64,000 bases of DNA. Source: a virus. Below, piece after piece: positions 30,720 to 48,400 of this stretch (positions are counted from its first letter, which is position 1; every line of letters begins with the position of its first letter). Both the position numbers and the translations under genes were made by a program. Under the pieces are notes generated by a model that ran no database searches, was not told the DNA's origin, and saw nothing but the letters and a program-made list of their open reading frames with translations. Where the stretch lies: the IMG/VR virus record IMGVR_UViG_3300041955_000531; one strand, 5' to 3'.

Positions 30720-31418
30720 ATGGCTATTAATACAAATAGCGGTAACTCGCTCGAAAGCGAAATCGCTCGTTCCTACAACTCGTTCTCAGGCTCGGACATC
30801 CGTGCCCAGATCGGCAACATCCCGTTCGCCGAGATCCAGGCGATCAGCTACAGTGTTACCCGCGAGAAGGCGCCTATCTATACGATGGGATCACCAGATC
30901 CTCGTGCCTTTAGCCGTAACAAGCGTGGCGTTGCTGGCTCCTTGGTCTGGATTAACTTCGATCGTCATGCTCTGTTGAACATCATCTATGAAGCATCAGG
31001 TGTATTCGTGGCTAACGTCGACGACGTTCGTCCGGAATACAACCCTGCCTCTCAACAGCAGCTTTCTCAGACAGCGATCTTCTCTTCGTCTCTTACCCGT
31101 GCGGTTCCTATCCCGCTCCCGACGACTGTCGACTCGGCAGAAGTGCCAATCAACTCCGTCTCGGGCTTCAAGCAGGAAGCAACTCCATGGTACTCGGATC
31201 AAATCCTCCCCTTTGACATCACTCTGGCCGGCACGAATGAAATCGGAGCCGCCACTACGATGAAGATCTTCGGTGTTGAGATCCTAAATGAAGGTATGGG
31301 AGTCAGCATCGATGACGCGGTGACCGAGATGCAAGCAACGTGGGTTGCTCGTCTCGTTGAGCCTTGGTCCGCTGTTGCGACCGCCTTCCCGAACCTCGCT
31401 GGTGAGGGTGGCAGTTAA
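30720..31418 (+). CDS. Tail tube protein
   Basis: Follows the sheath gene; SFSGSDI...QAISYSVTREKAPIYTMG...RGVAGSL...DQILPFDIT...GVEILNEG. Confidence 0.85.
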   Translation: MAINTNSGNSLESEIARSYNSFSGSDIRAQIGNIPFAEIQAISYSVTREKAPIYTMGSPDPRAFSRNKRGVAGSLVWINFDRHALLNIIYEASGVFVANVDDVRPEYNPASQQQLSQTAIFSSSLTRAVPIPLPTTVDSAEVPINSVSGFKQEATPWYSDQILPFDITLAGTNEIGAATTMKIFGVEILNEGMGVSIDDAVTEMQATWVARLVEPWSAVATAFPNLAGEGGS

Positions 31419-31674: not shown

Positions 31675-31705
31675 CTCTCAGGTTCGAAGCTAGTGCTCTA
31701 TCCAG

Positions 31706-31741
31706 GGGCTGCTGCTGATTCAGCAGCAGCCCTTTTGCTTT
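31706..31741 (+). terminator. Rho-independent terminator
   Basis: Perfect 12-bp stem GGGCTGCTGCTG-ATT-CAGCAGCAGCCC followed by TTTTGCTTT. Confidence 0.88.
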
Positions 31742-31754
31742 ATCCCTCCCTCCT

Positions 31755-32738
31755 ATGTCCATTCCCTCCCTCAGTGTAGTTACAGCTGGCTTTTCTCCAG
31801 TTAACGGCGACCAGACTTCCCTCCTTACGTCTGGTCTGTTTCCCGTTACTGAAAAGCAGCCGGGTCAATACGACTCAACCTCTACAACAACTCAGGGACA
31901 GCCAAACCCCACAGTAAGTGATCTAACTGATCAGACAGGAGGTTTGATCCCTACTGCTGGGAATACATTTCAAACATCGATTGGTATTCCGATCGGGACG
32001 GGCTCAGTCCCTTATGATTTGGAAGACTTGATCAATAATCCCAATGGGGGAATGGGACTCTCCATCTACAATCCAGATGGTACACTTACCACAGATCTCC
32101 AGAACAACTATTCAACCTACACAGGGACAGATCTGAAGATCATCGTGGATCTAGTCAACACAGACACCACAAGCACGATTCGCAAGAACCAGAAACAGCT
32201 GATTGAATGCACTACTTTCACTGTCTCCATCCACAGAGAGAAGTCTGCTGTGCGCGCGGCAGGCTACATCAATCCTAAGGGCTTTGCCCGCGGGCGCCGT
32301 ACAATAGCCGGTACGATGGTGCTCACTCAGTTCACCGTTGATATCCTGTACAGGTTCCTGATGGCTAACCAGTTATCCGCTCACGACCTGTCCAAGGATA
32401 CCTTCTATGTCAAGGTCGACCAACTTCCTCCATTCAATATGACCATGATCTTCACGGATGAGTTTGGCAATGCCAGCTATCGGCGTGTACTTGGTGTAGA
32501 CTTTGTGACCGATGGTGTGGTATACTCTACTAACGACATGATGACTGAACAGACTATCAGTTACATGGCCTCGGACTTCACACCTCTCTTGAACTTTGAA
32601 GCCAGTGCTTTGTTCCGTTCTGACAACGCTGGCCAGAGCGTGGCTACCGAGAATACCGTCGAATCAGTCATGAACAGCAAGCAACAGTTTGCTATCCCTC
32701 CGACCAACATCTTTTCCACACAAGGTAGTGGGTACTAA
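31755..32738 (+). CDS. Tail tube paralogue (tube initiator-like)
   Basis: TYTGTDL...TVSIHREK...GFARGRRTIAGTM...DQLPPFNMT...GVDFVTDG aligns by eye with the tube protein. Confidence 0.8.
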   Translation: MSIPSLSVVTAGFSPVNGDQTSLLTSGLFPVTEKQPGQYDSTSTTTQGQPNPTVSDLTDQTGGLIPTAGNTFQTSIGIPIGTGSVPYDLEDLINNPNGGMGLSIYNPDGTLTTDLQNNYSTYTGTDLKIIVDLVNTDTTSTIRKNQKQLIECTTFTVSIHREKSAVRAAGYINPKGFARGRRTIAGTMVLTQFTVDILYRFLMANQLSAHDLSKDTFYVKVDQLPPFNMTMIFTDEFGNASYRRVLGVDFVTDGVVYSTNDMMTEQTISYMASDFTPLLNFEASALFRSDNAGQSVATENTVESVMNSKQQFAIPPTNIFSTQGSGY

Positions 32739-34072
32739 TGGCACTTTACAGCCCAGTCGTATTGACCGTCATTGATGGGACAACCAATGATCCTGTCGAT
32801 GATGCACAGGTGTTTATCAATGGCTCGGGCAACTTCGATCCCACGCAGTTCACAGTAGTAACTGACTCAACAGGCAGTGCGACATTCCAAGTGCCTTTGA
32901 ATCCCGTGCAGGTTCAGATGCAGATCAAGGCTGTTGGATATCAAACTCTGAGTCAGCTTCTGTCAGTTAGCACAACAGTTGCTCAGTCAATACAGATTAC
33001 ACTGACTCCTACTACCCCAGCCAAAACTAATATTGAGTTGTGGTTTATCCCCGCGGTCCCTGGTATCTCCTGGGGTCTTTCAGGACCAGCCAGCGACAGT
33101 GGAGTAACAGATAATGCAGGGACTTCCACAACCCTGAATCCCATCCCGCTCGGCACATATACCCTAGCCGCCACTCTCGCAGGCTATCAGCCTTATAGCC
33201 AACCCTTTGTAGTTACAAACCAGATTGATGCTTATACGATCACTTTGGTTAAGCTGGCTGACCCAAACAACGGACAGCAAACAGGCAATGCTACTGACTC
33301 ATCCCAAAGCACTTCCCAGCCTTCCAGCATTGTAAGCAGCACTTCTACCGTTCCTCCTGCGCCGGCGGAATACACCTATCCTAACTCCGAGTACGACAGG
33401 TACTTCACCGTCACCGGCGCGCGTATGTACATCGGAAATATCTTCATAGATGAGCTGAACTCCGTTCAGTATGCCCTCCAAGATAACGCGGTTCCTATCT
33501 ATGGTTATGCCAGCCGCTACGTGGATGCTTATGCCCAAGGTCGATCGCTGGTACAGGGGCAGTTCACTATCAACTTTGTGACAGAGGGGTATCTGTACAC
33601 TGTCATGCAGGAGTATCAGAGGTTCCTGCAGAACACTCAGAATACCCAGGCTCTGGTAAACAGCCCCGCCCAGCAAACTATCATTACTATTTTGGGTAAG
33701 ATGGCTGCTCGTGATAGTCTATTACAGCAGGCAAATAACAACCCGAACGATACAGGTTCGGCTAAGCAGGCGGCCAATCTACAGATCCAAATCAATGCTC
33801 TGAGAGCTGGTTTAACTCCAGAGCAGATGCAGACATTGGCGACGAACATCACACAGCAGAACACTAGCTTTTCTGATGTGATTGGGTTCGACAATGCCGT
33901 TTACCAGGATGTGCTGTTTGACATCCGCATTGAACTAGGTAACGAGATCACGGGAGTAAAGCGTGTTCGCTACTTGGAGAAGTGCAAGCTGATTTCGAAT
34001 GAACAGGTGATGGCCCAAGATGGCCAGACCATTCTGGACTCCTATGGGTTCATCGCAAGGCGGCTAAGATAA
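32738..34072 (+). CDS. Tail tube paralogue with N-terminal Ig-like (carboxypeptidase-regulatory/PEGA-like) domains
   Basis: C-terminal YFTVTGARMYIG...PIYGYAS...GRSLVQGQFTINF; N-terminal TDSTG/TDNAG...GTYTL...GYQ domains. Confidence 0.75.
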   Translation: MALYSPVVLTVIDGTTNDPVDDAQVFINGSGNFDPTQFTVVTDSTGSATFQVPLNPVQVQMQIKAVGYQTLSQLLSVSTTVAQSIQITLTPTTPAKTNIELWFIPAVPGISWGLSGPASDSGVTDNAGTSTTLNPIPLGTYTLAATLAGYQPYSQPFVVTNQIDAYTITLVKLADPNNGQQTGNATDSSQSTSQPSSIVSSTSTVPPAPAEYTYPNSEYDRYFTVTGARMYIGNIFIDELNSVQYALQDNAVPIYGYASRYVDAYAQGRSLVQGQFTINFVTEGYLYTVMQEYQRFLQNTQNTQALVNSPAQQTIITILGKMAARDSLLQQANNNPNDTGSAKQAANLQIQINALRAGLTPEQMQTLATNITQQNTSFSDVIGFDNAVYQDVLFDIRIELGNEITGVKRVRYLEKCKLISNEQVMAQDGQTILDSYGFIARRLR

Positions 34073-34342: not shown

Positions 34343-34807
34343 ATGACTACCGAAGATGTAGTAGCTACACCAGAACAGCCCGAACCAAAGCCTGTCGACA
34401 AGTCAAACATGGACCCTCACGAGTTCCTCGCATCCCTGCCTGGCGCCCCCACGAAGGACATGATTGCTGCCTGGAAGCAGCAAGCTCCCAACAACAGACT
34501 CGAGGTCTTCACTCCCGACGGTAAGCGTGCTTACATCGTCCGCGGATTGACAGGTCTTGAACTGACCACGATCCAAAAGCAGATCCAATCCATGGCGACC
34601 CCAGTGGCGGATCCCGAACTCGAGATGCAACTCCATGCTGTTGTCAAGGCCGTTGTCTGGACGAACGCAGGCCAGAATGGAAAGCTCACCGATGTCGGTT
34701 TGCGCACTGGCGCTGCTGGCCTCCCGGCCACCTTGTTCACCAAGGTAACAAAGCTGTCGGATTTCATGGATCCGCAGCAGATTGAGTTCCTTTCCGCTGA
34801 GCTGTAA
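34343..34807 (+). CDS. Tail assembly chaperone
   Basis: IAAWKQQ...YIVRGLTGLE...AGLPATL...LSDF; lies between tube and tape-measure-like genes. Confidence 0.7.
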   Translation: MTTEDVVATPEQPEPKPVDKSNMDPHEFLASLPGAPTKDMIAAWKQQAPNNRLEVFTPDGKRAYIVRGLTGLELTTIQKQIQSMATPVADPELEMQLHAVVKAVVWTNAGQNGKLTDVGLRTGAAGLPATLFTKVTKLSDFMDPQQIEFLSAEL

Positions 34808-34809
34808 TC

Positions 34810-35376
34810 ATGACAACTAGGGCCGCCACTTGGCCCAGTGGGACACGTGTAATCTGGCGTGACCTCACTTGGGGAGAGTACCGAGATGCCCGTTCTCGTC
34901 AAGGGCCTCCCGCTGAAGTAGCCCTACACGTCTATAAACTATGTGTTATCCACGGTCCACGGCCGGAAGAGCTTCCGGCCGGGATCATGATGTGGATCTA
35001 CAAGGACCAGCTTGAGAAGAGCCCCTTCTCTGGATCCTTCCAGACTATATCTCTTCCGCTAGAGAATGCACGCAAGAAGGTATCAGAGTCTTATCTTCTG
35101 TGCGCGCAGGCTTTCATAGCATCTGTATTCAAGATCCCTTTCGAGGTGATGAATGACTGGAGCGCGGAAACACTACTCGTACGCCTCGCCCAGGCTGAGT
35201 TTGTTAGCGGCGTGCCACTCAACCCGGTGGATCCTAAGGCCACTAAGTCTGCTAAGGGCAGTAATAAGAGACCGAAGCGGCCCCTTACCGACGCCCAGCA
35301 AATAGCAATAGAGAGGAAAAATGATCCAGCTTTCAATCGCCGCCCAGGACAAGCTCGCCAGCGTCCTCAAAGATAA
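34810..35376 (+). CDS. Second tail assembly chaperone
   Basis: VIWRDLTWGEY...PAGI resembles the upstream chaperone; C-terminal LLVRLAQAE. Confidence 0.65.
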   Translation: MTTRAATWPSGTRVIWRDLTWGEYRDARSRQGPPAEVALHVYKLCVIHGPRPEELPAGIMMWIYKDQLEKSPFSGSFQTISLPLENARKKVSESYLLCAQAFIASVFKIPFEVMNDWSAETLLVRLAQAEFVSGVPLNPVDPKATKSAKGSNKRPKRPLTDAQQIAIERKNDPAFNRRPGQARQRPQR

Positions 35377-35659
35377 TCCAGATCTATCAGCCGTCAGGAT
35401 GGGTGTAGAAGGTGGCGGCTGTTCGGGCTTTCAATATCACATGAGTCTAGGGCCTTGTGAGAGGTGGCCTGCTGATTATGAGACAGCCTGGAATCTATAT
35501 ACTTTTGGAGACTTAAAGGTCTATGTTGACCCAATGAGTGAGATGTATCTAGATGGTGTTACCGTAGACTACATCGATACCATTCCTGAGTCCGGATTCA
35601 AGTTCACTAACCCAAACGTAAAGACAGCCTGTGGTTGTGGTAAGAGCTTCAGCGTTTAA
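35321..35659 (+). CDS. iscA: A-type iron-sulfur cluster carrier (IscA/ErpA/HesB family)
   Basis: VRMGVEGGGCSGFQY, VYVDPMSEMYLDGVTVDY and GFKFTNPNVKTACGCGKSF, with all three Cys ligands; GAGAGGA RBS. Confidence 0.95.
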   Translation: MIQLSIAAQDKLASVLKDNPDLSAVRMGVEGGGCSGFQYHMSLGPCERWPADYETAWNLYTFGDLKVYVDPMSEMYLDGVTVDYIDTIPESGFKFTNPNVKTACGCGKSFSV

Positions 35660-35664
35660 TATGC

Positions 35665-38600
35665 ATGGCAACCTGGCACCAAAAGCATTTCTTTCACGTT
35701 CTCGACGTCGAGACCACAGGCCTGTCCGCTGGACATAAGAATACAGGCCTGCTCCAGATCTTCGCTTCAAAACTCCCTCCTTACGTAGCATCCCCGTTTC
35801 ACCCCACCACGTTAGTAAAACCCCGCACAGGATACACCGATCCTGTGAGCGGGGTTCACATTCCATTTGCATACAACTATGAGAAAGGTCAGCATGTTCT
35901 TTCTCAGGCCATGAAGCTTGGCCAGGAGAGTGAAGAAGAGTCAGCTCGACGCTTCTTTGCTTCCGCTGAAGAAGAGCTGTCTCGTAAGAAGCGTTTCCTG
36001 CTAACTGGCTGGAACGTCAAATATGATACTGGTGTGCTCACTGAGATCGCCAATCGTTATCCCAGCCTGCATGGATACAAAGACTTCTTCCAGCGCAAGG
36101 GGGTAAAGGTCTTCGGTCTGGAGCAGTCGTTCTTCGAACTTGCTTTGGGCTATGGTCAAGACAACCCAGAGTTCGCAGAACGTTACCTGCGTATGGGTCC
36201 TTCCACACCTATTACCAAGACTACAGGTCCTGGTATGCTGGCACGTAATGTTGAAGAGATGCAATGGGTGCCTGGCTGGAAGGTGGAGAATATTGCTGGA
36301 GCGGCTGGCGGGATGGAACGACTGCTGGGTCCTAAGCTGGCTGGGGCTGCTGGGTATCATGAGGCCGTGACTGACGTCAAGGTCGAGCAGACTCTCTTTG
36401 AGCGCCTGCGCACAGCCAGAAAGAATCTGCAGCGCGGTCACAGCTGGGAAGAAGCTCTTGGATCCGCACAACTCTTACCTGAAGGTGAGACTGCGGAGAC
36501 GTTCTTCTCCAAGATCTATGCCAACCCGTGGGCTGAGAAAGTAGCTGCTCAGGCTGAGCGTGGCGCCAAGGTCCTGCCCAAGAAGATGAGCGGTATAGGG
36601 AAGGGTCTTTCTCTCGCTCTTGTATTCGCCGGTGCAGCAACTGCAGCCTGGGCTATTGCTAGCAGCAAGCGAAGTGATCGCCAGACTCAGATCACTGGTC
36701 TCAGTGATACAGGTATGGCTGCTGACAGCCGTCATAAACTTACTGATTTCGGTTCAGGTTGGCAAGGACAAGATAATAGCCATACACTGCGACTGGCTAG
36801 TCTTCTGGTCGGTGGCGCCGCAGTCTTGGGAGCTCACAAGTTTGCTCTCGAGAACTGGTCTGGCTACGCAGAAGGAATCTATCAGTTTGCGAAGAAGATA
36901 GAGACTCGTTCTCCTGGTGCAATCTTTGGCACCTTCAGATTCTCTGAGCGAATGTCCAGCTACCTGCCTGAGGAAGTCTCCTTCAAGGCCGAGCAGTTGG
37001 TGCGTGGTTCAGAGCTTACCGAAATGGGTAAGCACATCCAGCGATTGATTGGTGTCAGCGCCCTGGATAAACGCTTTGCTAAAGAGGGAATGAGATTCAC
37101 TAGAACTTCAGCTTCCTCTCCATACTTGAGTTTGGTTGGTGGAAGAGGCGAATCTATTCGCTTTGCCCAGCGCGGACGGCTGACAGGTTCGGCTGCTTCG
37201 TTCGGTGGCCCACTCAAAGAACAGGTATTCCCTCGTACCCTGACTACTGAGGGTCCTCTGGCTGAGATGTGGGAGATGTTCCAGAATCTCCGCGGTAGTC
37301 AGAGACCAGGCACTCCTCTTACCAAAGGTCAGGCATTCAAGCAACAAGCTGGTGGAGAGTTCCGCTTCTTCGAACCTCTCTACGGCCGCAAGCCTGGATT
37401 CGTAGGTGGTGTAGAGTCTGCTTATAGAACAGGACAGCGTGCACTGTTTGAAGCTGCCGAGCGTCCTCTTCGCCTGCTGTCTGATATCGGTATGGGTCTG
37501 CCTAAAGGCTCATACAACAAGCTGTTCCACATCCCATTCCATGGCGAAGGTGGAATGCTCAATGCGTTGATGCTCAAGCGCGTGCTGCCTGCATATCTTG
37601 CTATCACGGCCGCGCGTTACATCAACTACCAGCTGGACAACAAACCAGCTGAGAAGCTCGCCGAGATACCACTCAAAGCTCACCTCGCTTGGGCGCGCGC
37701 AACAGATACAATCCCGGGTCTTCGTGCGATCACCGACAAGTATGAGGAGATCGTACCAGGTCCACAGTACGGTCCTGCAGCCATACCGATCGGTGCTGGT
37801 GCTATCGGTGCGGGTATTCACTGGTTCAACATCGCTCGCGGAGCAGAAGAGTTCCAAGTTCATGCTGCTCGAGCCGCTGCTTCTCGCAAGGCCTTCTGGA
37901 AGGGATTCGGTATAGGAGTCCTCATTGCTGCACCATTTATCCCTGGGATGATTGGCAGCCGCAAGACCGAAGACGAACTGCAACGTATCTACTCTGGTGA
38001 AGAAGAAGTTCCAGTCCGTGCAGGTCGTTGGTGGGATGTAGGTTCCACTCCATTCAGTGGCGGTCGCATCAAGTACTTCCGTCCGCACTGGTATCAGTTG
38101 ATGAAGTCCAAGGCCGAGATGGTCTCGACTTATGGATCAGAAGATGCTTATTGGGAACACCACCCACTGCTACATCCGTTCAAGTATATCAAGGATCCAT
38201 ACTGGCTAGAACGCGCGAACTATGCTAGCCGTCCGTATCCAATCACCTCGCCTGCGTTCTCCAACGTTCCTCTCATCGGTCCGTTGCTAGCTGCCACAAT
38301 CGGCCGCATCGTAAAGCCACCACAGAGAATGCACGAGGGCGAATGGGATATCAACAACTATACGTTGTATAGCCCACGTCTGGAACCCAACATGGAGTTG
38401 GGTGGTCTGCCGCCATCCAAGCCTCGTGAGGAGTTCGGCTTCAAGGATGTAGCTACCCGTGAAGCTGTGTCCTTCGCTGAATACACAGGTCTGCCTGGTT
38501 TCATTGCTACGACACTCTATGGCCAAGCAGGCCCACAAGGAACTCCTGGCAAGGATGTGATCCTGCAGGGCAGCCGCCAGATGACAAACCTGGCTCGCCA

Positions 38601-40584
38601 GTATTATCAGCGTGAGTTGGGTGCCGTGTCAGGTTTCAACCCGAGTGGAACAGGCGGCATGCCATTCGGCTATTCAGAACCTCTCCGCCGTTTCATTCAG
38701 CCTGATAAGCTAATGCCTCAGGCCAATGAAATCCCCAATACAATGCCTCGCTGGCTGCCTGGCGAAGACTACATGATCAACTTCCGTACTGGCGATCCGT
38801 TCGCCAAGATACCGGAAGGTGGTGCTCGTCTCCCAGGCCGTGGCTATGCCGCTCTGCACCCAGAACTCCGCGGGCTAAAGCCTGAAGACTATCCAGACAT
38901 TACTCGCTACAAGATCCTGGCTGACGTTGCTCCTTGGAGCAAGGAGTACATGATCTATCGTGCCAAGGTACGTGCGGCCGCACAGAAAGATCAGCGTACA
39001 GCGATTGAGTTTGCACGCACTGAAGACCAAGTGCGTCAGATGAAGGAATCCACGATCCAGATCCAGCAGCGTCGTTTCACTGCTCCGATCGAACAGCTTC
39101 AGGGTACAATCACCAAGGCTACACCAGAGGGTATAGAGCTGGAGCAATACCCGGGTCGTAAGTTCATGCTCAGTTCTCTGGGTATGTCCGCGGCTGATCT
39201 CTCAGCTATGACCCTCGGCGAGGAGAATGAACTTACCCGCTCTCAGAGTGCCAAGGCAGTTACAGATAAGCAAGCCGCTCTCGAAGAGTATCTGACTGGT
39301 CAGATTGGTATGCAGGCTACTCTTGTGGTTCCTAAGGGAACTGAGCAGCATGCTGCTGAAGCTCGTGCTGTCCTCTTCGTCGATAACGTTAACATCAACA
39401 AGGAGATCATAGACAAGGGTCTCGGTCAGTTCAGAAAGGACTATGGCGGAGCTGAAGCTCAAGCCATGTATTCCTCCACCCAGGTGGCTCTAGGTAAGTA
39501 TGCTGAGACTTTGTCTTTCACTGGTGAAGGTGGTCCTCTTCGTTTCGTCCCGACTCCATTCCATACTAAGTACTGGAATGAGCGCACAGCTCTGTCCCTT
39601 TATCAGGAGCAGGAAGTCTACGGTGCTCGTATGCGTAGATGGCAGCACCCGTTCCGTGATATGATTGCTCCATGGGCTCGTGGTGCGTACCGTCGTTTCA
39701 CTGGCGGTATGTTGGTGCCAGAGCAAGTTGAAAATCGCCGTCTGATGGACAGCTTGGTTGATCAGTTGGAATATCTGCGTGCAGATATCCAAGCAGGTGC
39801 ACATCCTGGGCAGAAAGGCAGGTATACTAGTCAGGGAAAGAGAACGAATATAGGTGCCAATCTATTTGGCAATCCTCAGTTTATCTCTCAAACCCTCCCT
39901 CGGCGCGAGAAGCTTTACTTCCCAGCATTCCTCCAAGAAACAGATCCGGAGAAGCGCCAGCAGATCCTACAATCTGTCTCTCCGGAACTAGCTCGAGCCC
40001 TTACTGCTCAGTGGGTAAAAACTGATGCTATACTTGCTCGCCTCGCGGGCAAGAGTGTGCCAGCCATTGAAGAAGGCGGAGTCCTCTACACAGAGGAAGG
40101 CCTCAAAGAGTATGAGCAAGCGAAAACAGACCTCAGCTATTCCGACTACATCCGTTCGAAACAAATCGCCGAAACCTTTGGCAAGCTCGGCTTTGATATC
40201 CCCGGTCCTGGTTCTCCGCTATGGGAGCAAGGCATTGACTATGAGGATGTCAAGCTTAAGATTATTCAGAACGAGGGCTATGATTACCACGACTTCAACA
40301 TCTACGACGACAGGGCAGCCCTCCTCTGGCGCAAGCCCTACATCGATGGAGCTGTTAGAGAGCTTGTTTCTAGCGGTTCACAACCTACAGAGCGCATACG
40401 ACAAACTGTGGAGCGTATTATCCTCGAGGGACAAGATAAGAATCCGCAAGTGGTCGCCTCGGGCGGTCCTAACCGAGTGGCAGGCTCCAACGTGTCTATA
40501 AACGTCGACGAACAGGGTGACAAAGAGGTTATGAGGGATATTCGCCGTAATGAGGACGAGTACCGGGAAGAGAGTACCAGCTAA
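35665..40584 (+). CDS. Tape-measure-like/ejected protein with an N-terminal DEDDh exonuclease and an internal SNase-like domain
   Basis: 1639 aa after the tail chaperones; LDVETTG, GWNVKYD and HEAVTD; several Gly/Ala hydrophobic helices; ARAVLFVDNVNINKEIIDKGLG. Confidence 0.75.
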   Translation: MATWHQKHFFHVLDVETTGLSAGHKNTGLLQIFASKLPPYVASPFHPTTLVKPRTGYTDPVSGVHIPFAYNYEKGQHVLSQAMKLGQESEEESARRFFASAEEELSRKKRFLLTGWNVKYDTGVLTEIANRYPSLHGYKDFFQRKGVKVFGLEQSFFELALGYGQDNPEFAERYLRMGPSTPITKTTGPGMLARNVEEMQWVPGWKVENIAGAAGGMERLLGPKLAGAAGYHEAVTDVKVEQTLFERLRTARKNLQRGHSWEEALGSAQLLPEGETAETFFSKIYANPWAEKVAAQAERGAKVLPKKMSGIGKGLSLALVFAGAATAAWAIASSKRSDRQTQITGLSDTGMAADSRHKLTDFGSGWQGQDNSHTLRLASLLVGGAAVLGAHKFALENWSGYAEGIYQFAKKIETRSPGAIFGTFRFSERMSSYLPEEVSFKAEQLVRGSELTEMGKHIQRLIGVSALDKRFAKEGMRFTRTSASSPYLSLVGGRGESIRFAQRGRLTGSAASFGGPLKEQVFPRTLTTEGPLAEMWEMFQNLRGSQRPGTPLTKGQAFKQQAGGEFRFFEPLYGRKPGFVGGVESAYRTGQRALFEAAERPLRLLSDIGMGLPKGSYNKLFHIPFHGEGGMLNALMLKRVLPAYLAITAARYINYQLDNKPAEKLAEIPLKAHLAWARATDTIPGLRAITDKYEEIVPGPQYGPAAIPIGAGAIGAGIHWFNIARGAEEFQVHAARAAASRKAFWKGFGIGVLIAAPFIPGMIGSRKTEDELQRIYSGEEEVPVRAGRWWDVGSTPFSGGRIKYFRPHWYQLMKSKAEMVSTYGSEDAYWEHHPLLHPFKYIKDPYWLERANYASRPYPITSPAFSNVPLIGPLLAATIGRIVKPPQRMHEGEWDINNYTLYSPRLEPNMELGGLPPSKPREEFGFKDVATREAVSFAEYTGLPGFIATTLYGQAGPQGTPGKDVILQGSRQMTNLARQYYQRELGAVSGFNPSGTGGMPFGYSEPLRRFIQPDKLMPQANEIPNTMPRWLPGEDYMINFRTGDPFAKIPEGGARLPGRGYAALHPELRGLKPEDYPDITRYKILADVAPWSKEYMIYRAKVRAAAQKDQRTAIEFARTEDQVRQMKESTIQIQQRRFTAPIEQLQGTITKATPEGIELEQYPGRKFMLSSLGMSAADLSAMTLGEENELTRSQSAKAVTDKQAALEEYLTGQIGMQATLVVPKGTEQHAAEARAVLFVDNVNINKEIIDKGLGQFRKDYGGAEAQAMYSSTQVALGKYAETLSFTGEGGPLRFVPTPFHTKYWNERTALSLYQEQEVYGARMRRWQHPFRDMIAPWARGAYRRFTGGMLVPEQVENRRLMDSLVDQLEYLRADIQAGAHPGQKGRYTSQGKRTNIGANLFGNPQFISQTLPRREKLYFPAFLQETDPEKRQQILQSVSPELARALTAQWVKTDAILARLAGKSVPAIEEGGVLYTEEGLKEYEQAKTDLSYSDYIRSKQIAETFGKLGFDIPGPGSPLWEQGIDYEDVKLKIIQNEGYDYHDFNIYDDRAALLWRKPYIDGAVRELVSSGSQPTERIRQTVERIILEGQDKNPQVVASGGPNRVAGSNVSINVDEQGDKEVMRDIRRNEDEYREESTS
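39823..39834 (+). promoter_or_regulatory. One-mismatch copy of the promoter-like motif (TATACTAGTCAG)
   Basis: GGTATACTAGTCAGGG, intragenic, about 830 nt upstream of the RNA polymerase-like gene. Confidence 0.35.
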
Positions 40585-40618
40585 ACTCCTAGAATGCCCC
40601 GTAAAGGGCCCTAGGAGT
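40585..40618 (+). other. Intergenic hairpin between the two giant genes
   Basis: ACTCCTAG pairs with CTAGGAGT, inner GCCC/GGGC; no U-tract. Confidence 0.55.
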
Positions 40619-40664
40619 CGATTAGAGCCATTAAATCAGTGAGATAGGACCAGACTACCAGATT

Positions 40665-43600
40665 ATGTTTACCGGGTTCCTAAAAGCCGTTAAAAGCCTT
40701 GCAACCGAACATCCAGGTGTGGCCTTTGCCACTGCCTTTGCCTCGGCTACGGCCCCTATTTTCCTTAGGGATGAGAACCGCGGTTACTTCCGGACTGCCG
40801 TCATAACTACCCCTATCGTAGCGGCTATGGGTCTTGCCGGCCCGGGCTTGGTAACATCTGCCTCCCGCACAGCTCGAGCTGGCATGCAGTTCGCACGTGA
40901 GATGCCTATGTTTTTTGGTAGCAATAAAGCTACTAGATTCAAGGACTTACGTTCAGCTCTGGAAAAGACAGGTGGGGGTGCAGGAGCTCTCAATCCCATC
41001 TTCCGTACCTGGGCCGACAATGCGGCCGTAGACTTCTTCAGCCAGGTTGACCGCGGTGGTCCACCGATCGAGAAGAGCATGGAGCAGGCGGAGAACCTCT
41101 TTCATGAGCTTCTGGGCATGTCCAACAAGCGTGATCTGCTTACCTATGCTGTGGAAGGCGCCAGACAGCGGGTAGCTTCTCCGTTAGATCTTACTAGAGT
41201 TGCGCGCGGAGGTCCTCTGGCCGGCATGGCAGAGTCAGAGCTCCGCGGTATCGTCAACGCCAATAGAGCTGATCCCCGCTTCGTCAAGGAGTTGAGCAGC
41301 CGTCTTGGCTGGGCCAAGAAGCTCAAGGATCTCGGTCCGTTTGCTAATCCACTCAAGATGAGCATGACTGGGAAGACTACCAGTATGGAGTGGCTGGAAG
41401 CTTATGGTCAGTTGCATGGTCAGCGTCCAGAAGTGGCTGATGCTATTCAGCGCGCGATCCGTCAGGGACAGGTGTCCTCTGCTACGGTCGTTGCCGAGCA
41501 GGTGGCAGATGGAACTGTCGGCCGCATGCTGGGTGTCAATATCAAGGGTCCAAAGGGCGAACTTCATATTCCTCTGTTTGATCCCAAGACAGGATCCGTC
41601 AACATTGAAGGCAAGGTTGGAGTCGGGCGCCACATTCACACACCAGAACGAGTATTCGAACTGGATACATTCGTTGCTGAACACCTGACTCAGGATTGGG
41701 GAAAGCTGAAAGGTGACATTGGTCGTGCTGCTTATTTCGGCGGCGTGGTCCCCGAAGACCCATTCAAGCTTCAAACACGTCTTGAATCTCAGCTTGCCAA
41801 CCTTTCTCCACAAGCTCTGTATATCCGTTCTCGTGCTGCTATTCCTAGCAGCTTGCCTGTTTATGGAGGCAAGGTATTTGAGGATCTGTCAGACCTGGAA
41901 CGGATCCAGTACACTATCAAGATGCTGGGTCGTGGTATGACTCGCATTGGTTCTGAGGGAGGCACATCGAAAGGTGTGTTCGAGTTCGCTGAATCGGAAC
42001 TCTACATCCCGGGAGGTGCGCCTTCGCTCGCTAAGCAAACGTATTTCTATAGATCCTTCACCAAGGACTTGCAGCTGAAAGCTGAGACCATTGGTGAGGA
42101 GTTCCGTCCAAGCTTTACAACCTCCGCGGTTGAATCCATCGGAGGCGTTCCGGAAATACAGATGTCCGTGGCTGGTGTGTCGCCACAACAGAAGTCGCTG
42201 TTCGGCGACTTGCCGAAAACAGCAGAAGGATTGGCTGGCTATAAAGAGACTGCTATCCAACGTATACTCGCCGACAATCCAAAGCTGACACGCGCCCAGG
42301 CAGAAGCTGCTTGGGGTAAGATCAGTGGTAAGCTCGGAGAGAAGGGCTACCTAGAGGCCGGTCGCGGCCTGGGTGGACTAGGTGAAGGTGACATCATCCT
42401 CCACGAGAAGTTCCGCCGGCTGAAGATGGAGTCGCGTAAGAACGTCTATGTCGACAAGCTCCATCTCAATCCCGAGGATTACATCAAAAAGTCTCTCAGC
42501 CCAGAGACACTAATCGGATTTGAGGGTTTGAATCCTGTCACATCGGAAGCTCCTTCTACATTCATAGAAGGCTGGTCCACTACGCCTAGCGGTCAGTTTG
42601 AGCTCAAGCTGCGTCAGGAGTATCCAGTCGAGACAGGAGCTAAGATAGACATCGCTGGTGTGAAGGGTTTGGCTATAGTACCCGAGGAAGACATCTTCCG
42701 TCGCCAGGTCGAGCTGTTGAATCTATACGGTGAGGCTACTGGGTCTAAGACTGCTATCCCTAGCTTTGTGGAAGCTCTAGCTCCGCTACACTACATGCAA
42801 GCTAAGACTAGCGATCCTTTCCGCCTTATGGTATCGCAAGCAGCTGCCGTGTCTAGCGACATTGCTGCTAACAGTGTGCATCTAAAGGCTGACTGGGCAA
42901 ATCTGGAAGCGTTGGATCGTGTCGATAAGTACATGGCTGATCTTGCTGCTCAGGGTATTCGTGCGCAGCGTACTGGTACTGGAAACAATGTCTTCCGTCT
43001 GCTCGAAGATTCGGAATACGTACGCAGCCTGGATCTGGAAGGCCGTCGACTCCGTATGCAATCGGTGGGACAGCTCACAGAAGACTACCTGCGTGATGTT
43101 GCTGGCTTTGCTCAGCGCGGTGCTCCTGGAACCGAGGGTGAACTCTTCTCTGCCTTCAGACGCAGTGGTGAAGAAAGTCTGATGAACTACATGCAGAAGA
43201 ACGCCATGTTCTCCTTTGCGGCGTTCTGGGATAGCACTCGCCGTAATGTACCTCAGATGGTCGGCGCCACATACGATATGTTCTCCGAGATGTGGAGAGC
43301 TGGTAATGTGGAAGGTATGCGGGAGTTGATGAGCCGCTTGGATTTCCATGGTGGAGATCCGGGAAGAGCTTCTGCTTTTGCTGCCCAGTTCGTAGGTGGT
43401 GACTTCACCAAGCCTCTGGGGACTGTTATCCCCATAGAGGAGGCTGCAGCCAATCTCAGAATAGGCATGATGGAAGGCCGAGTTGGAGGTATCTTTGATC
43501 CCTCAAACAAGCTCGTCCAAGAGAACTTTTCTATCAAGCTCGATCAGCCGGTGTATGCGCGTGTGGCTGGGCGTGACCTTGAGGTTACTCACATTCCTGT

Positions 43601-45434
43601 CCTGGGTAAGCTGGCACATGGCGGTGGTAGCAACCTCTATGAAAAGATTGGTGAGGGTCTTACTTATAGCCCCACGGATTATGAAAAGACACTGGCGGAT
43701 GTAGTCAAGTGGCAGAAGGATCCCGTCATGATGTCCGCGGCGATCTCTGCCCACCTCGATGAAGCTCAGCGTGTACTGTTCGGAAAGGAAGGATTCTACC
43801 GTGCCCGCGGCACAGATGTTCTGGGAGCTGTGTCTGGCTTCATTCAGACGCGCGCCCAGGAAAACCCATTTGAACTCCTTATCAATGAGCAGATGGCCGG
43901 CCGAGTCCGCGACCCTGAGATCCGTAAAGCATTACTCGCCGGAGAAGATATCTACGCTACGGCTGCTCGTCACCCTATTCAGTCAGCTCCTTACATGCGT
44001 GTGAAGGTGGCTCCTGATGCTGGCATGGGTCCTAACATGGTCGGTATGGATGAGCGCATCCGTGGCTTGTTCGGCGCCGATGATGATAAGGATATCCTGA
44101 ATCTGTTCTTCTATCGCAAGGGTTCTCAAGCCGAACGTGAAGCCCAAGCTGCTATCAATGCTCTGAATAGCAACCAGTGGAGAAGCCTGAAGACCCTTGA
44201 GATGCTGTACGGGAGCGTTGAAGACTCACGCAACATCGCAGAAGCTGGTGTGAAGACTCTGCCTTCTATGCTTGAAGAAAGTCTTAAGTTGGCTAGTGCA
44301 GGTGGAAGAGCAGAACAAGTCACACAGCGTATGGCTGGTGGTGTGGTTGGTGCTTACTCGAACTTGCTGACTCGTTTGTACATGAACGTCGAGATGCATC
44401 CTACGATCGGTGTGAAGCCGATGGAAAGAGATCTCCTCGGTCACATGCTGTGGACGATCCGTCAGGTACCTATCTCTGCCCAGAAGGGCAAGATGAAGTT
44501 GAATCCTGAGGATCCTCTGGGGTTGTACAGAAGACTGGTAGGTGGTTTGGAATCTCGCACGCCAGAAGGTGTGGCTAAGTTCACCGAAGGTATGAGAGAA
44601 GTCATCGCTGGTTACGGTAAGGAATCGATCATTACCGCAGAGACTGCTCCTTTGTTTGAAGAGCTTACTGGGATGAAGGTAGCTCCTGGCACTAAGCGGA
44701 ATGTCTTGATGGACGTGCTGGACTCCGAGAAGTTCCAAGGTACACTCTCCGAGTTTATCACAGGACGTAATGTTAGGGCAGATCGTGCTGCCGAGCTTCT
44801 GACTAAGGCAACTACGGATATGGAGGGTGATTCCCTCTATCGTCTGCAAGCTTTGTACAAGGAGATGGGTACGCCTCCTCCTTGGTTGATTGGCCTGGCG
44901 CGCGAGAAAGGCTCGGGGATGTCTGTATCCAAGGTCCTCGGAGCTATCAATGAAGGCCTCAAGAGTACTTATAGAGAGTCCAAAGGTAACCTAGGTGTTC
45001 TGGCTATTGGAGTCGGAGCCGCGGCTGTAGGAGCAGTTCTTACCAGCCATGTCAAGAAGGTTACTCCGACGCAGGCTACTTTCGGTCGGCCGCGTGGGAA
45101 CTTCAGACCAGAGACTACCGAGACTGTAACAGATCAAGTCCCGGGCGAGCCAATAACCGGTGCTATGTCTTCTGTTAACCCACCTCGTCGTCAGCTTCCT
45201 CTGCGTGGTGGTACATCTACAACGATCGTGGCGCCAATGCGCCAGCGTACAGATCTGGAAGTAAGAATGAAGGCTCAGAATCGCCAGGATACGATTGAAA
45301 TGCAACGTATGATTAGTCAGATCTCTGGCAATAATGGTGTATCAAATATCAATGTGAACTATCGCAACGGATGGAGAAACAAGATGAGTACTCTCCGCCG
45401 TCGTGAGACGATTCGAGAACAACTGGAATCCTAA
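40665..45434 (+). CDS. Candidate single-chain virion RNA polymerase (fused beta and beta' double-psi-barrel cores)
   Basis: Collinear motifs GEGDIILHEKF (aa 573), GAKIDIAGVKGLAIVPEED (aa 658), FGKEGFYR (G1040), RHP (aa 1102) and GADDDKD (aa 1137-1143). Confidence 0.75.
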   Translation: MFTGFLKAVKSLATEHPGVAFATAFASATAPIFLRDENRGYFRTAVITTPIVAAMGLAGPGLVTSASRTARAGMQFAREMPMFFGSNKATRFKDLRSALEKTGGGAGALNPIFRTWADNAAVDFFSQVDRGGPPIEKSMEQAENLFHELLGMSNKRDLLTYAVEGARQRVASPLDLTRVARGGPLAGMAESELRGIVNANRADPRFVKELSSRLGWAKKLKDLGPFANPLKMSMTGKTTSMEWLEAYGQLHGQRPEVADAIQRAIRQGQVSSATVVAEQVADGTVGRMLGVNIKGPKGELHIPLFDPKTGSVNIEGKVGVGRHIHTPERVFELDTFVAEHLTQDWGKLKGDIGRAAYFGGVVPEDPFKLQTRLESQLANLSPQALYIRSRAAIPSSLPVYGGKVFEDLSDLERIQYTIKMLGRGMTRIGSEGGTSKGVFEFAESELYIPGGAPSLAKQTYFYRSFTKDLQLKAETIGEEFRPSFTTSAVESIGGVPEIQMSVAGVSPQQKSLFGDLPKTAEGLAGYKETAIQRILADNPKLTRAQAEAAWGKISGKLGEKGYLEAGRGLGGLGEGDIILHEKFRRLKMESRKNVYVDKLHLNPEDYIKKSLSPETLIGFEGLNPVTSEAPSTFIEGWSTTPSGQFELKLRQEYPVETGAKIDIAGVKGLAIVPEEDIFRRQVELLNLYGEATGSKTAIPSFVEALAPLHYMQAKTSDPFRLMVSQAAAVSSDIAANSVHLKADWANLEALDRVDKYMADLAAQGIRAQRTGTGNNVFRLLEDSEYVRSLDLEGRRLRMQSVGQLTEDYLRDVAGFAQRGAPGTEGELFSAFRRSGEESLMNYMQKNAMFSFAAFWDSTRRNVPQMVGATYDMFSEMWRAGNVEGMRELMSRLDFHGGDPGRASAFAAQFVGGDFTKPLGTVIPIEEAAANLRIGMMEGRVGGIFDPSNKLVQENFSIKLDQPVYARVAGRDLEVTHIPVLGKLAHGGGSNLYEKIGEGLTYSPTDYEKTLADVVKWQKDPVMMSAAISAHLDEAQRVLFGKEGFYRARGTDVLGAVSGFIQTRAQENPFELLINEQMAGRVRDPEIRKALLAGEDIYATAARHPIQSAPYMRVKVAPDAGMGPNMVGMDERIRGLFGADDDKDILNLFFYRKGSQAEREAQAAINALNSNQWRSLKTLEMLYGSVEDSRNIAEAGVKTLPSMLEESLKLASAGGRAEQVTQRMAGGVVGAYSNLLTRLYMNVEMHPTIGVKPMERDLLGHMLWTIRQVPISAQKGKMKLNPEDPLGLYRRLVGGLESRTPEGVAKFTEGMREVIAGYGKESIITAETAPLFEELTGMKVAPGTKRNVLMDVLDSEKFQGTLSEFITGRNVRADRAAELLTKATTDMEGDSLYRLQALYKEMGTPPPWLIGLAREKGSGMSVSKVLGAINEGLKSTYRESKGNLGVLAIGVGAAAVGAVLTSHVKKVTPTQATFGRPRGNFRPETTETVTDQVPGEPITGAMSSVNPPRRQLPLRGGTSTTIVAPMRQRTDLEVRMKAQNRQDTIEMQRMISQISGNNGVSNINVNYRNGWRNKMSTLRRRETIREQLES

Positions 45435-48400
45435 TGGGACAGATAATCACAACTCGAGATGACAATCAAGCGGGATACTTCCGTATTGGTAACCTTGTAC
45501 TGAACATTCCTCCGGAACAGATTCAGTGCCACAAGGTTATCAACGGCGAAGAGGTTATGCCTCTGCGCTTCCCGTTCGCTATTCCTATCAAGACTGGTCA
45601 GTCGCGTTGGGATGTAACGTGGACCTGGAAGTGCGTTGCTGATTATGATAATGCCGACTACTCAGCATGGACTGATGTACAGATGCTCCTGGCTATGTTT
45701 AAGGCTGCTCCCTTCGTTGAAGTAGAGAACGATCATATCCGTCAGATCGTGAACCCTGCGGTTCTAACTCAAGGGGCTACTGCAGATGACGTTATGGCTT
45801 TTGCTCTGCGTCAGATGCGTGTGGAAACTAATCCTGATTTGATTGACACGCTGCAAGTTACCATGACGATGTCGTACTTCAACTATCGTCCGTACTCCAA
45901 GAACTTCCAGTATGATGATTGGACAGGCAACTCTACTTCCAGTGCTCTGAACTCGCCACTTTTCACAGCTTACTTGTTGAACTGGATCCAGACGAATCTG
46001 AACAGTGATCCTACCCAACAGCCTGATACAGGTATGACTGTCTCCTCCACGAACTGGCAGGGACAGATACCTGGCAGTATTACGTTTACTGCGCGCGAGT
46101 ATGCTGCTTGCGCACTGCCTAATGATACAGGTCTCAATCCTCCGCCGGCCGGATCTGGAGCCCTCAATCCAGCCAATCCTGGAGCCACTCGACAGGGTAC
46201 TGCTGCACAGGGGAAAGCCAGCGCTGGAAACTTCGTAGATAACATCGTTATCGACACAACTGATATACACAATCCTGCTATTCAGTGGTGGGTGAAGTCT
46301 GCTGCCTTTCCGGAATCCAACAACAACTATTCGGCGATCAACAAGTCTACAGTGACCAATACCGGCAAGCCTTCGGCTGCAGTAGGTCTTCTGCAGTGGG
46401 TGCGCGCGGCTGCTATTGATGCTATGAAGGCAGCTGATACTTATCTTGGCACACACTATGTTTCTGTGGCTGTGCAGAGTGGTTATCTGGTTGCTGCTCG
46501 TACTAACAATGGATACAACTGGGCATCTAAGTCTGTTCCAAGTCCACAGTCAACAGATCCTGTATTGGCAACCTATATCTCTTGGATGATGAGCCCGCCT
46601 ATCACAGGTGGACAAGCCCAGCTTCAGAATGACATGGCTACAGGTTGGGCTATCCTCAAGCTGCGTGCTAACAATGGTTCTGCTCTGTCGGCTTGGGAAG
46701 CACATCGTTTTGGACAAGGCATCGTGAATAATGGACAAGGTTCTCCAAGTATGGATAACACTTGGTTCACGAAGGCTACGAATACTTACCGCACACTATC
46801 GAATGATCCAAATGCTTTCACTCCTCAGGAAGGTACAATACCGCCTGCTGGTAATCCTAACCCGGCAACGAATACTACTCCAGTGGTAAGCGGTAACAAC
46901 ACAAACACACCTCCAAACATTTCTAACTCAACCAACCCACCACCGACTGCGACAACTCCGCCGCCGATGACAACGCAGATTCGCTATCTGTTGAACAACA
47001 ACTATACGTATGACTACGCTACTGAGTCTGCTGCGTTCCTATACAAAGAACACTACATCAAGATGACAGCTAAGGAGAATGATGATCAGCCGGCCAGCTC
47101 GGATATCGAAGATATAGATCCAGAGCACTTTATCTATCCGATGCAGATCTCTGTTGTGTTCGTCAATAACATCTCCCAGATCCCGTTGGCTGGGTATCAG
47201 TATCCGACCTATCAGCACTTGGGTCCTGGGTCTACACTGGTGTCTGTTGGCTTGCTGTCGAATGCCAAGATTCCAGAAGCTGCTGACAGTTATCCAGAAC
47301 CGGAACATACTGGACTCAGCTTGCTGTCCAACATGACTAAGATGCTGGAAGATCAGTTCCAGAGCTTGCGCAATGAGTGGCGCCGTGTGAACTCTATTCA
47401 TCGTATGCAATCGATAGCAGTCCAGAACCAAGTCCTTAACATGCTGGGTATTCGCGGCTTGTTGACAAAAGAACTGACAACTGAAACCATACCTGAAGCA
47501 GCAAGTGAAGTAACTGCCCAGTACAATGCCATTCAATATGAGAACGTCTATTATGCTGAGGGCCCAAATCCATATCAGGTGAATACAACACCCTTTGGAT
47601 TCTCTCAAATCTGGCTGAAGATCCTGCGTGACGGCACGATCGTCAATGACTTCTCTGGTGATACATCACTCACTGCCTTGGTGAACTTGGCAAAGATGAT
47701 GACGTATTCAAATACAGTATCTACCGCTGTTTCTTCAGTGACGGGTACTACTGCTACTGGAGCAGAAGCTAATCAGTTCTTGTGGAACTGGTTAACTCAG
47801 CAATCACCGACTGTAACACCAGCCGGAGGTGCAGTATCAGGTGCTATTGGGGGTGTTGCATTAGGCACAGCGGTGCAGCAAGCGCTTACGCATTTTCTGG
47901 CTCCGCCTCCTATCTCTAGTGAAGCTTACAATGTGTTGTCTCCTGCTCCTTTCGAGCAACAGGAGCAACTGCTGATGGTTAAGTTGCTAGATGAGTTTCC
48001 AAGCAGCCTGACGGGTCTGAGAGACAATACCTTCACCGAAGACTTCCCAGATATAGCGAATCGAATCAAGAGTCATGGTGGTCAGTTAAACTACTCCGAC
48101 TATTTCCTGATTAAGAACTGGCCAACTCTATCTGAGCTGCCGGATTATCAGCTGTTTCAAACCTACTCCAAGAATATTGATGCCCGTGTCTCTGCGGCTC
48201 TGGCTGCGGATCCTGCTTTAGAGTCACCAGTCAATCAGCTGTGGGATCAGTTTGTAGGCTTTGCCTATGCTAACAACTATCAGTTGATTCGTGACCAAAT
48301 GCAACGCGCGCAGTCGTCTCCACAGCTGAAACCTCTGTTTGTGACAACACAGACGACTACCACACCTGGTAATGCTCAGCTCCCAGGACACTCGTGCTAT

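Follow-up and report, generated by a model that had tools for sequence, protein, structure and literature searches.

A predicted single-chain RNA polymerase and its exonuclease-bearing partner at the tape-measure locus of a jumbo myovirus

In the virus record IMGVR_UViG_3300041955_000531, of which a stretch of 64,000 nucleotides was analysed (hereafter the window), two giant genes occupy the position of the tail tape measure gene, between the tail chaperone genes and those of the hub and distal tail. Gene 1 (35665-40584) encodes P0001, a protein of 1639 residues, and gene 2 (40665-45434) encodes P0002, of 1589 residues; both open reading frames (ORFs) are intact and, like all the window genes described below, lie on the + strand. 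A first, sequence-only reading had located two genes of ~1600 residues at the tape-measure locus and had seen nucleic-acid enzyme domains in both products. Its coordinates were exact, the genes standing between a chaperone homologue and the hub, and the enzyme domains were recovered here as a predicted DEDDh exonuclease in gene 1 and a predicted two-barrel RNA polymerase (RNAP) in gene 2. Scans of P0001 and P0002 against Pfam and PHROG gave no matches, phmmer against the PDB returned nothing for either protein, and no sequence resembling gene 2 was found in GenBank phages by megablast or tblastn.

The polymerase fold of gene 2

An AlphaFold2 (AF2) model covering residues 240-1435 of P0002 (pLDDT 74.5, pTM 0.57) was compared with solved structures, and all of its top 50 PDB matches in Foldseek (50/50) were largest subunits of RNA polymerases. 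Structural alignments with VIA divided the model into two halves. The first, residues 254-867 (41424-43265), resembles the beta subunit and contains the first barrel, with K660 and K667: in VIA wide, a search independent of Foldseek, model residues 15-628 aligned with the Xanthomonas RNAP beta subunit (6j9e_C) with a Z of 11.0 and a root-mean-square deviation (rmsd) of 5.3 over 439 residues, with A135 of Pol I (4c2m_B; Z 11.2 over 370 residues), and with chains of the non-virion RNA polymerases (nvRNAPs) of phages phiKZ (7ogp_C; Z 11.3) and AR9 (7s00_C; Z 10.9), the beta-class alignments spanning 291-439 residues. The second half, residues 910-1375 (43392-44789), resembles the beta' subunit and holds the catalytic barrel; here model residues 671-1136 aligned with the largest subunits of Pol I, Pol II and African swine fever virus with Z 12.4-13.0 (for instance 6rwe_A, rmsd 3.9 over 191 residues in VIA-align). 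The alignments to RPB1-type chains extend to model residue ~1134, and isolated double-psi beta-barrel domains superpose on model residues 815-936 (7dww; Z 10.7, rmsd 1.9 over 84 residues). Matches in BFVD include RNAP subunits of nucleocytoplasmic large DNA viruses, and the best BFVD match is annotated as 'minor tail protein'. Since the N-terminal half has beta-class matches and the C-terminal half beta'-class ones, the model predicts that gene 2 encodes an RNA polymerase of the cellular type in which beta and then beta' are fused in a single chain.

The motifs of both barrels are retained in a large family. Gene 2 has 20 full-length metagenomic homologues, and its profile, searched against 1.84 billion representative sequences, retrieved 100 clusters at E <=1e-3, of which 73 reached <=1e-30; most members have 1550-1700 residues. 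In 22 relatives with 20-32% identity to P0002, residues D1139, D1141, D1143 and P1104 are invariant, and R1102, K660 and K667 are conserved in at least 90%. The metal-binding motif (43968-44093; R1102-H-P ... G-A-D1139-D-D1141-K-D1143) consists of R1102-H-P, 34 residues and then D1139-D-D1141-K-D1143, that is, a beta'-type barrel with the preceding [RK]xP, and it satisfies the filter of PMC10770324 Supplementary Data 4. The sequence G-A-K660-I-D-x-A-G-V-K667-G (family consensus G-A-K-x-D-x-x-G-x-K-G) supplies the two basic residues of a beta-type barrel. The DDDKD of gene 2 is identical to the AR9 nvRNAP motif as given in the survey of Chaban et al., which implies that this variant of the loop is compatible with activity. 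A long helix at model residues 973-1005 carries the invariant R1222, G1229, Y1231, S1232 and N1233, and it may resemble the bridge-helix motif of bacterial polymerases. Fusions of an exonuclease to the polymerase were not found in the gene 2 family, either with an exonuclease hidden Markov model (HMM) or in Pfam scans of six long N-terminal extensions.

The polymerase is bordered at both ends by hydrophobic sequence. Hydropathy was calculated after Kyte-Doolittle in 19-residue windows, and values of at least 1.6 were reached at residues 45-63 and 1443-1461 of P0002 and at residues 314-332 and 747-765 of P0001; the transmembrane character of these segments was judged from hydropathy together with conservation. 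The N-terminal hydrophobic region of P0002, residues 19-63 (40719-40853), includes the motif RGY..T..TTP, reaches 1.71 at residues 45-63, and has R39, G40 and P50 invariant in 22 distant relatives. The C-terminal transmembrane-like segment, residues 1443-1461 (44991-45047), reaches 2.03, residues 1445-1464 being hydrophobic in 22/22 distant relatives, and it is followed by a conserved tail (45105-45431; RPE...PGEP...PPR...NVNY...R.R..RE.L) in which R1481, P1493, G1494 and G1499 are invariant. The peptides that the sequence-only reading had quoted as hydrophobic helices lie at residue 312 of P0001 and residues 19 and 1443 of P0002, and their presence is confirmed. That reading had further held that the two proteins end similarly, in peptides at residue 1608 of P0001 and residue 1558 of P0002, and that the common C-terminus might be a packaging or assembly signal. 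BLASTP of the two tails gave an E of 0.7, and a profile-profile comparison of the last 70 residues gave a probability of 2.8% over 12 columns; neither the similarity nor a shared signal finds statistical support. Gp145 and gp146 of phage 0305phi8-36 show, again without statistical support, a loosely similar arrangement in which a strand of alternating Asn and hydrophobic residues leads into a charged helix.

Gene 1 and its nuclease head

By core homology and gene position, gene 1 belongs to the family of gp145 of 0305phi8-36, as a giant with an exchangeable nuclease head. In tblastn, residues 599-1336 of P0001 match gp145 with 27.6% identity (best E 7e-21); ME3_35 of Acinetobacter phage vB_AbaM_ME3 (ME3) and proteins of Bacillus and Moorella jumbo phages are among its relatives, and 85 homologues were collected. 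The N-terminal residues 1-290 (35665-36534) are predicted to form a DEDDh (DnaQ/RNase T-like) 3'-5' exonuclease: Exo motifs I (DxE), II (D) and III (Hx4D) follow one another in order, five residues (D14, E16, D121, H232 and D237) do not vary among 16 sequences with identities as low as 25%, and the profile of the domain matches RNase T (2f96) with an E of 1.2e-6 and all three Exo motifs aligned. This head is absent from many relatives of ~1300 residues, which begin at about residue 372 of P0001. BLAST mapping of P0050 and P0043 puts the start of the exo-less variants close to a hydrophobic segment at residues 377-395 (36793-36849; Kyte-Doolittle 1.58). In other exo-less relatives (P0043, P0076), a REase_MTES_1575/DUF559 (Vsr-like) domain is inserted in frame at the position of P0001 residues 908/909, ~38388 in the window; the inserted domain could be nuclease cargo of another kind or else a mobile insertion that keeps the frame.

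The remaining ~1200 residues of P0001 gave a compact AF2 model (pLDDT 84.5, pTM 0.78). A Gly/Ala-rich hydrophobic segment with K/R flanks lies at residues 314-332 (36604-36660; Kyte-Doolittle 1.79), and a second, conserved one at residues 747-765 (37903-37959; 1.64) forms part of a long helical hairpin; residues 745-766 are hydrophobic in 90% of 20 relatives, and the hairpin that contains them (model residues 252-339) resembles membrane helical hairpins with Z <7. Next to it comes the most conserved block of the gp145 family, residues 780-1090 (38002-38934), whose invariant residues include R788, W790, E849, R856, K884, H890, E1005, R1008, R1009 and D1044 and for which the PDB held no counterpart by sequence or fold. 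In one relative, P0096, an intein (Intein_splicing plus LAGLIDADG_3) interrupts this block at P0001 position 1047 (~38803 in the window), next to an invariant G-D-P, and the choice of this position suggests a functionally critical site; a block so rich in charged invariant residues, and hosting an intein, hints at an activity or a key interface.

Residues 1140-1273 of P0001 (39082-39483) form an SNase/Tudor-SN-like OB-fold module (VIA Z 8.3-9.0, rmsd 3.0-4.2 over 90-106 residues), and Foldseek matched the gene 1 model to SNases with E 0.06-0.3. Among 36 relatives, no conserved columns were found in residues 1140-1290, the Ca-binding and catalytic Asp, Glu and Arg residues of SNase included, and the module is probably non-catalytic. 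The sequence-only reading had spoken of nucleases in the plural; the DEDDh exonuclease can be kept, and the SNase/OB module lacks conserved catalytic residues. Apart from this module and the helical hairpin, no convincing solved relative of the P0001 core was obtained by PDB sequence searches, Foldseek or VIA.

Conservation of the pair and its surroundings

The pairing of the two genes, proposed beforehand, is confirmed by sequence at four loci, namely the window and three others, and for phage ME3 from fold. Each of the four keeps the order chaperones, gp145-like gene, polymerase gene and hub gene, at RNAP identities of 22-30%. A polymerase 30% identical to gene 2 is encoded by contig L006, where the partner retains the exonuclease head; contig JGI 3300071358 has the same gene order with a gp145-like partner devoid of the head, and the order from chaperones to hub is again the same in L021. 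L021 (7796-8869) and the JGI contig contain, between the two giant genes, a gene for an AAA+ ATPase of 357-364 residues (AAA_2 plus ClpB_D2-small, ClpX/HslU-like) that does not occur in the window, and in one of these two relatives the gene is followed by one for a trypsin-like protease. This ATPase could be a dedicated unfoldase or loader of the giant proteins.

The source phage is a 0305phi8-36-like jumbo myovirus with a genome of ~215 kb; a 99% identical homologue of P0002 is encoded in an IMG/VR record (215,395 bp, completeness rated at 100%) that was used as the sister genome. In 0305phi8-36 the order is chaperonins gp143/144, gp145 (1930 residues), gp146 (2537 residues, 'hypothetical tape measure') and hub gp147, and the gap between chaperone and hub that genes 1 and 2 fill is the tape-measure slot of this lineage. 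The window shares with 0305phi8-36 the lineage, the gene order, the upstream genes for tube, tube paralogue, gp142 and gp144, and the presence of two cysteine-free proteins in the slot. Phage ME3 also has this order, with ME3_35 (gp145-like), ME3_36 (1603 residues) and the hub. As 0305phi8-36 and ME3 share the gene order, paired giants at the tape-measure locus are a trait of the lineage and not a peculiarity of the window.

The identity of the second giant in these two phages was approached through profiles and models. No similarity was detected between gene 2 and gp146, either with hhalign or in an HMM search of the 0305phi8-36 genome, and gp146 has no DxDxD. Hardies et al. 2007 (PMC2147016) based the assignment of gp146 as a tape measure mainly on tail length, reported conservation with BtI1 for its final 60 residues only, and located the RdRP/YonO-like polymerase of 0305phi8-36 in orf99, a separate, non-virion gene. 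In ME3, the gene of ME3_36 (L002:14397-19208) is annotated as encoding a hypothetical protein, and its family retains K632, K639 and R1174-E-P...D1217-x-D-x-D1221. Both halves of a 1603-residue ME3 protein matched the gene 2 model in BFVD (E 8e-6 and 6.5e-3), a protein that we equate with ME3_36 from its length. Significant sequence or profile similarity between the gene 2 family and ME3_36 was not found with hhalign or in an HMM search of the ME3 genome, BLASTP giving noise; hhalign of gene 2 against the ME3_36 family profile placed the two Lys motifs opposite each other at a probability of 0.6%. On the evidence of fold and motifs, the cultured phage ME3 seems to share the arrangement, with a polymerase in the tape-measure slot.

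Fold matches to the gene 2 model were also given by other phage proteins. In ME3, a protein of 798 residues (BFVD A0A172Q0S6) appears as a second polymerase-like protein. Microcystis phage Ma-LMM01 encodes gp080 (3562 residues; L020:1-8389, opposite strand), which, together with its MaMV-DC homologue, lies outside the tail module and matches the model structurally; gp080 could thus far have gone unrecognised as a further virion polymerase. A 970-residue ORF (G001 163948-166860; L015:3948-6860) of the 215-kb sister genome, with the sequence R-D-D-D-G-D-M, is a possible second polymerase that we do not claim, as it has no upstream [RK]xP; it had no matches in Pfam, PDB or GenBank phages, and IMG/VR held only identical copies. 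A search of this genome for PF05183 (RdRP) gave no match.

The window as a whole is a single long structural-gene block of a contractile-tailed phage. It carries portal (8311-10527) and major capsid protein (15136-16500), both identified with Pfam, continues with the sheath (28179-30629, PHROGs), and then carries genes matched to 0305phi8-36: tube (30720-31418), tube paralogue (31755-32738) and a gp142 homologue (32738-34072). An ORF of 154 residues (34343-34807), assigned from its position upstream of the gp144 homologue, precedes a tail assembly chaperone homologue of 188 residues (34810-35376; BLASTP against 0305phi8-36 gp144, 'hypothetical tail chaperonin', E 1.8e-7). The latter overlaps by 56 nt a gene that adjoins gene 1 and encodes an A-type Fe-S carrier (IscA/ErpA-like, 112 residues, 35321-35659; PF01521 E 4.6e-15, phrog_17776), although the products of genes 1 and 2 contain no cysteine. 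On the other side, the stop codon of gene 2 is overlapped by the start of the gene for P0003, a baseplate hub-like giant of 1952 residues (45434-51292; phrog_20474 E 2.9e-37) that has the position of the hubs gp147 and ME3_37, and baseplate genes identified with PHROGs lie downstream. P0003 has a C-terminal hydrophobic pair at residues 1858-1884 (Kyte-Doolittle 1.95 at residues 1858-1876), and by hydropathy all three giant tail proteins (P0001, P0002 and P0003) carry membrane-like helices. Promoter- or terminator-like sites above the shuffled background were not found in the stretch, except for a 14-bp GC-rich hairpin with a T-rich tail (31704-31734) directly 3' of the tube gene, the sole strong terminator-like site in 30-46 kb. 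A relative of gene 1 with 67% identity (P0035) was deposited in a 52-kb contig under a metagenome-assembled genome of Candidatus Acidiferrales (Acidobacteriota), which may be a hint at host range or a binning artefact.

Virion delivery and competing explanations

P0001 and P0002 together contain no cysteine in 3228 residues. The other ORFs of the window have 0.62% Cys, from which ~20 would be expected (P ~2e-9), and the avoidance extends to the families, with 2 Cys in 58,284 residues of the gene 2 polymerase family and 2 in 53,897 residues of the gp145 family. Cysteine is also absent from gp145, gp146, ME3_35 and ME3_36 and from gp96 of Thermus phage P23-45 (5002 residues), whereas the hubs and other neighbours do contain it. 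This pattern suggests a shared constraint on proteins that would cross the tail and the cell envelope in a non-native state.

The closest functional precedent is gp96. This tape measure protein has in its N-terminal part a two-barrel polymerase, shown to be active, which occurs in virions and transcribes the pre-early genes, and it was proposed to work at the tape-measure pore during DNA entry; the system spans the Thermus phages P23-45, P74-26, G20c and TSP4 (Chaban et al. 2024, PMC10770324; PDB 8h2m, 8h2n). Gp96 and gene 2 have in common the two barrels, DxDxD, the tape-measure position, hydrophobic membrane segments and the absence of cysteine. They differ in that gp96 belongs to a siphovirus and comprises 5002 residues, with ~3800 residues of tape and a metallopeptidase, whereas gene 2, from a contractile-tailed jumbo phage, encodes 1589 residues with neither tape nor peptidase; unlike in the gp96 system, an exonuclease-bearing giant precedes the polymerase in the window. 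No sequence relation was found between gene 2 and residues 1-1200 of gp96 (hhalign) or the P23-45 genome (HMM search), and by fold gp96 gave a Z of 8.4 only, versus 11-13 for cellular-type beta and beta' subunits. Gene 2 thus resembles the polymerase and membrane end of a gp96-like protein minus the tape.

For gene 1, a comparison can be drawn with enzyme-bearing, membrane-active tape measures, T5 pb2 being an example, and with polyvalent proteins. In both, as in gene 1, a delivery scaffold with hydrophobic segments carries swappable catalytic domains directed at the host during entry. The cargo of gene 1 is different, consisting of a DEDDh exonuclease (or, in sister phages, a REase-like insert) on a core of unmatched fold, in contrast to a helical tape with muralytic domains. 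Iyer et al. 2021 (PMC7824862) mention phage 'polyvalent proteins' that are injected.

We consider it moderately probable that the two giants are a conserved pair of virion proteins, in which gene 2 would provide an injected polymerase and gene 1 a scaffold with exonuclease cargo. The polymerase would be synthesized late, along with the tail, travel in the particle and enter the cell at infection; kept at or close to the inner membrane through its C-terminal hydrophobic segment, it would transcribe the first phage genes, as gp96 of P23-45 does. The conserved core and hydrophobic hairpin of gene 1 would act as a delivery or assembly scaffold, and its exonuclease would be an exchangeable cargo acting on nucleic acid ends at the entry site. 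We infer that gene 2 resides in the virion, that the tail is crossed in a non-native state, that insertion into the membrane and early transcription follow, and what the exonuclease acts on; transcription-driven import of the genome might be a further step. An enzyme of the late tail operon could serve early transcription only if packaged, and for this reason, together with the conserved anchor and the pattern of cysteine, we prefer virion delivery to the other readings. Its plausibility derives from the gp96 precedent, the position in the tail operon, the conserved hydrophobic segments, the lack of cysteine and the fact that, according to the 0305phi8-36 record, gp145 was identified in virions by mass spectrometry, as was gp146.

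Several observations weigh against virion delivery. The gene 2 family is placed in the particle from its operon position, its hydrophobic segments and the absence of cysteine, and the transmembrane character of these segments comes from hydropathy alone. Both AF2 models are compact mixed alpha/beta globules, not tape-like and too big, when folded, for the tail tube; neither shows the extended, mostly alpha-helical structure of a tape. Among solved phage enzymes, gene 2 most resembles the phiKZ and AR9 non-virion polymerases in fold and catalytic motif, and gp96 comes behind them in fold. Gene 2 is without detectable sequence relation to gp146, which itself lacks the polymerase motif, and a second polymerase was not demonstrated in the 215-kb sister genome.

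The globular models bear directly on where the proteins would be stored, and it is possible, if rather doubtful, that both are injected but kept folded in the capsid, like the N4 virion RNAP, gp66 of crAss-like phages or the T7 core, their gene position being historical. Both models are confident as well as compact, neither includes a long helical tape, and the structurally related giant of Ma-LMM01 is encoded outside the tail module, all of which would fit storage in the head. In the window, however, the giants replace the tape measure gene instead of accompanying it and lie downstream of the tail chaperone homologues; the precedent polymerase of gp96 is physically part of the tape measure (PMC10770324), and the AAA+ unfoldase-like gene between the giants in two relatives hints at handling in a non-native state. 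On balance, we lean slightly towards a hub-anchored location in the tail over the head.

A bolder scenario, which we regard as unlikely, takes the tail location to its limit. The lineage would have no conventional tape measure; both enzymes would be threaded in a non-native state into the tube, in some relatives with the help of a Clp-like unfoldase encoded between them, and, fixed at the hub through their C-terminal tails, would contribute to setting tail length. After contraction of the sheath they would refold at the inner membrane as an exonuclease-polymerase machine, transcribing and helping to pull in the leading end of the 215-kb genome.

The likeness to phiKZ and AR9 raises a different question, namely whether gene 2 could be a non-virion polymerase that lies in the tail operon by chance and serves middle or late transcription, as the nvRNAPs of those phages do. 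Their chains (7ogp and 7s00) are the best phage structural matches of the beta-like half, the AR9 enzyme shares DDDKD, and a virion location of gene 2 is argued from context. We nevertheless find this quite improbable: a polymerase co-expressed with the late tail genes would come too late to transcribe middle or late genes, it stays flanked by the gp145-like gene and the hub at 22-30% identity, the C-terminal hydrophobic segment and tail are retained in all its relatives, and it has in common with the proteins of the tape-measure slot, gp96 included, a near-total loss of cysteine. The phiKZ and AR9 polymerases consist of 4-5 polypeptides encoded outside the tail module, while gene 2 encodes one chain with terminal hydrophobic segments. 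That the giants are ordinary length-setting tape measures whose enzyme-like parts are decayed relics, as might be argued from features that tape measure proteins typically show (their slot, hydrophobic segments and absence of cysteine) and from the assignment of gp146 by tail length (PMC2147016), is very improbable indeed, the catalytic residues of both enzymes being invariant down to 20-25% identity and the predicted structures globular instead of extended helices.

A polymerase delivered by the tape measure has been demonstrated so far only in the P23-45 group of Thermus siphoviruses. In relation to that system, what is new here is the setting in a myovirus and jumbo phage, the tape-less form with beta and beta' in a single chain, the obligate partner with swappable nucleases and the avoidance of cysteine throughout the family. 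The virion-delivery proposal also sharpens the question of how a globular enzyme of 1100 residues might be stored in, and pass through, a tail tube of ~4 nm, and three features offer handles on this passage: cysteine is strictly avoided, membrane segment and tail are conserved, and relatives have the Clp-like ATPase gene. As ME3 is cultured and seemingly has the same arrangement, the idea could be tested at the bench. If true, the strategy known from the Thermus phages would also operate in a large and almost wholly uncultured lineage of contractile-tailed jumbo phages, represented by 100 sequence clusters, none of them detectable by tblastn in GenBank phage records.

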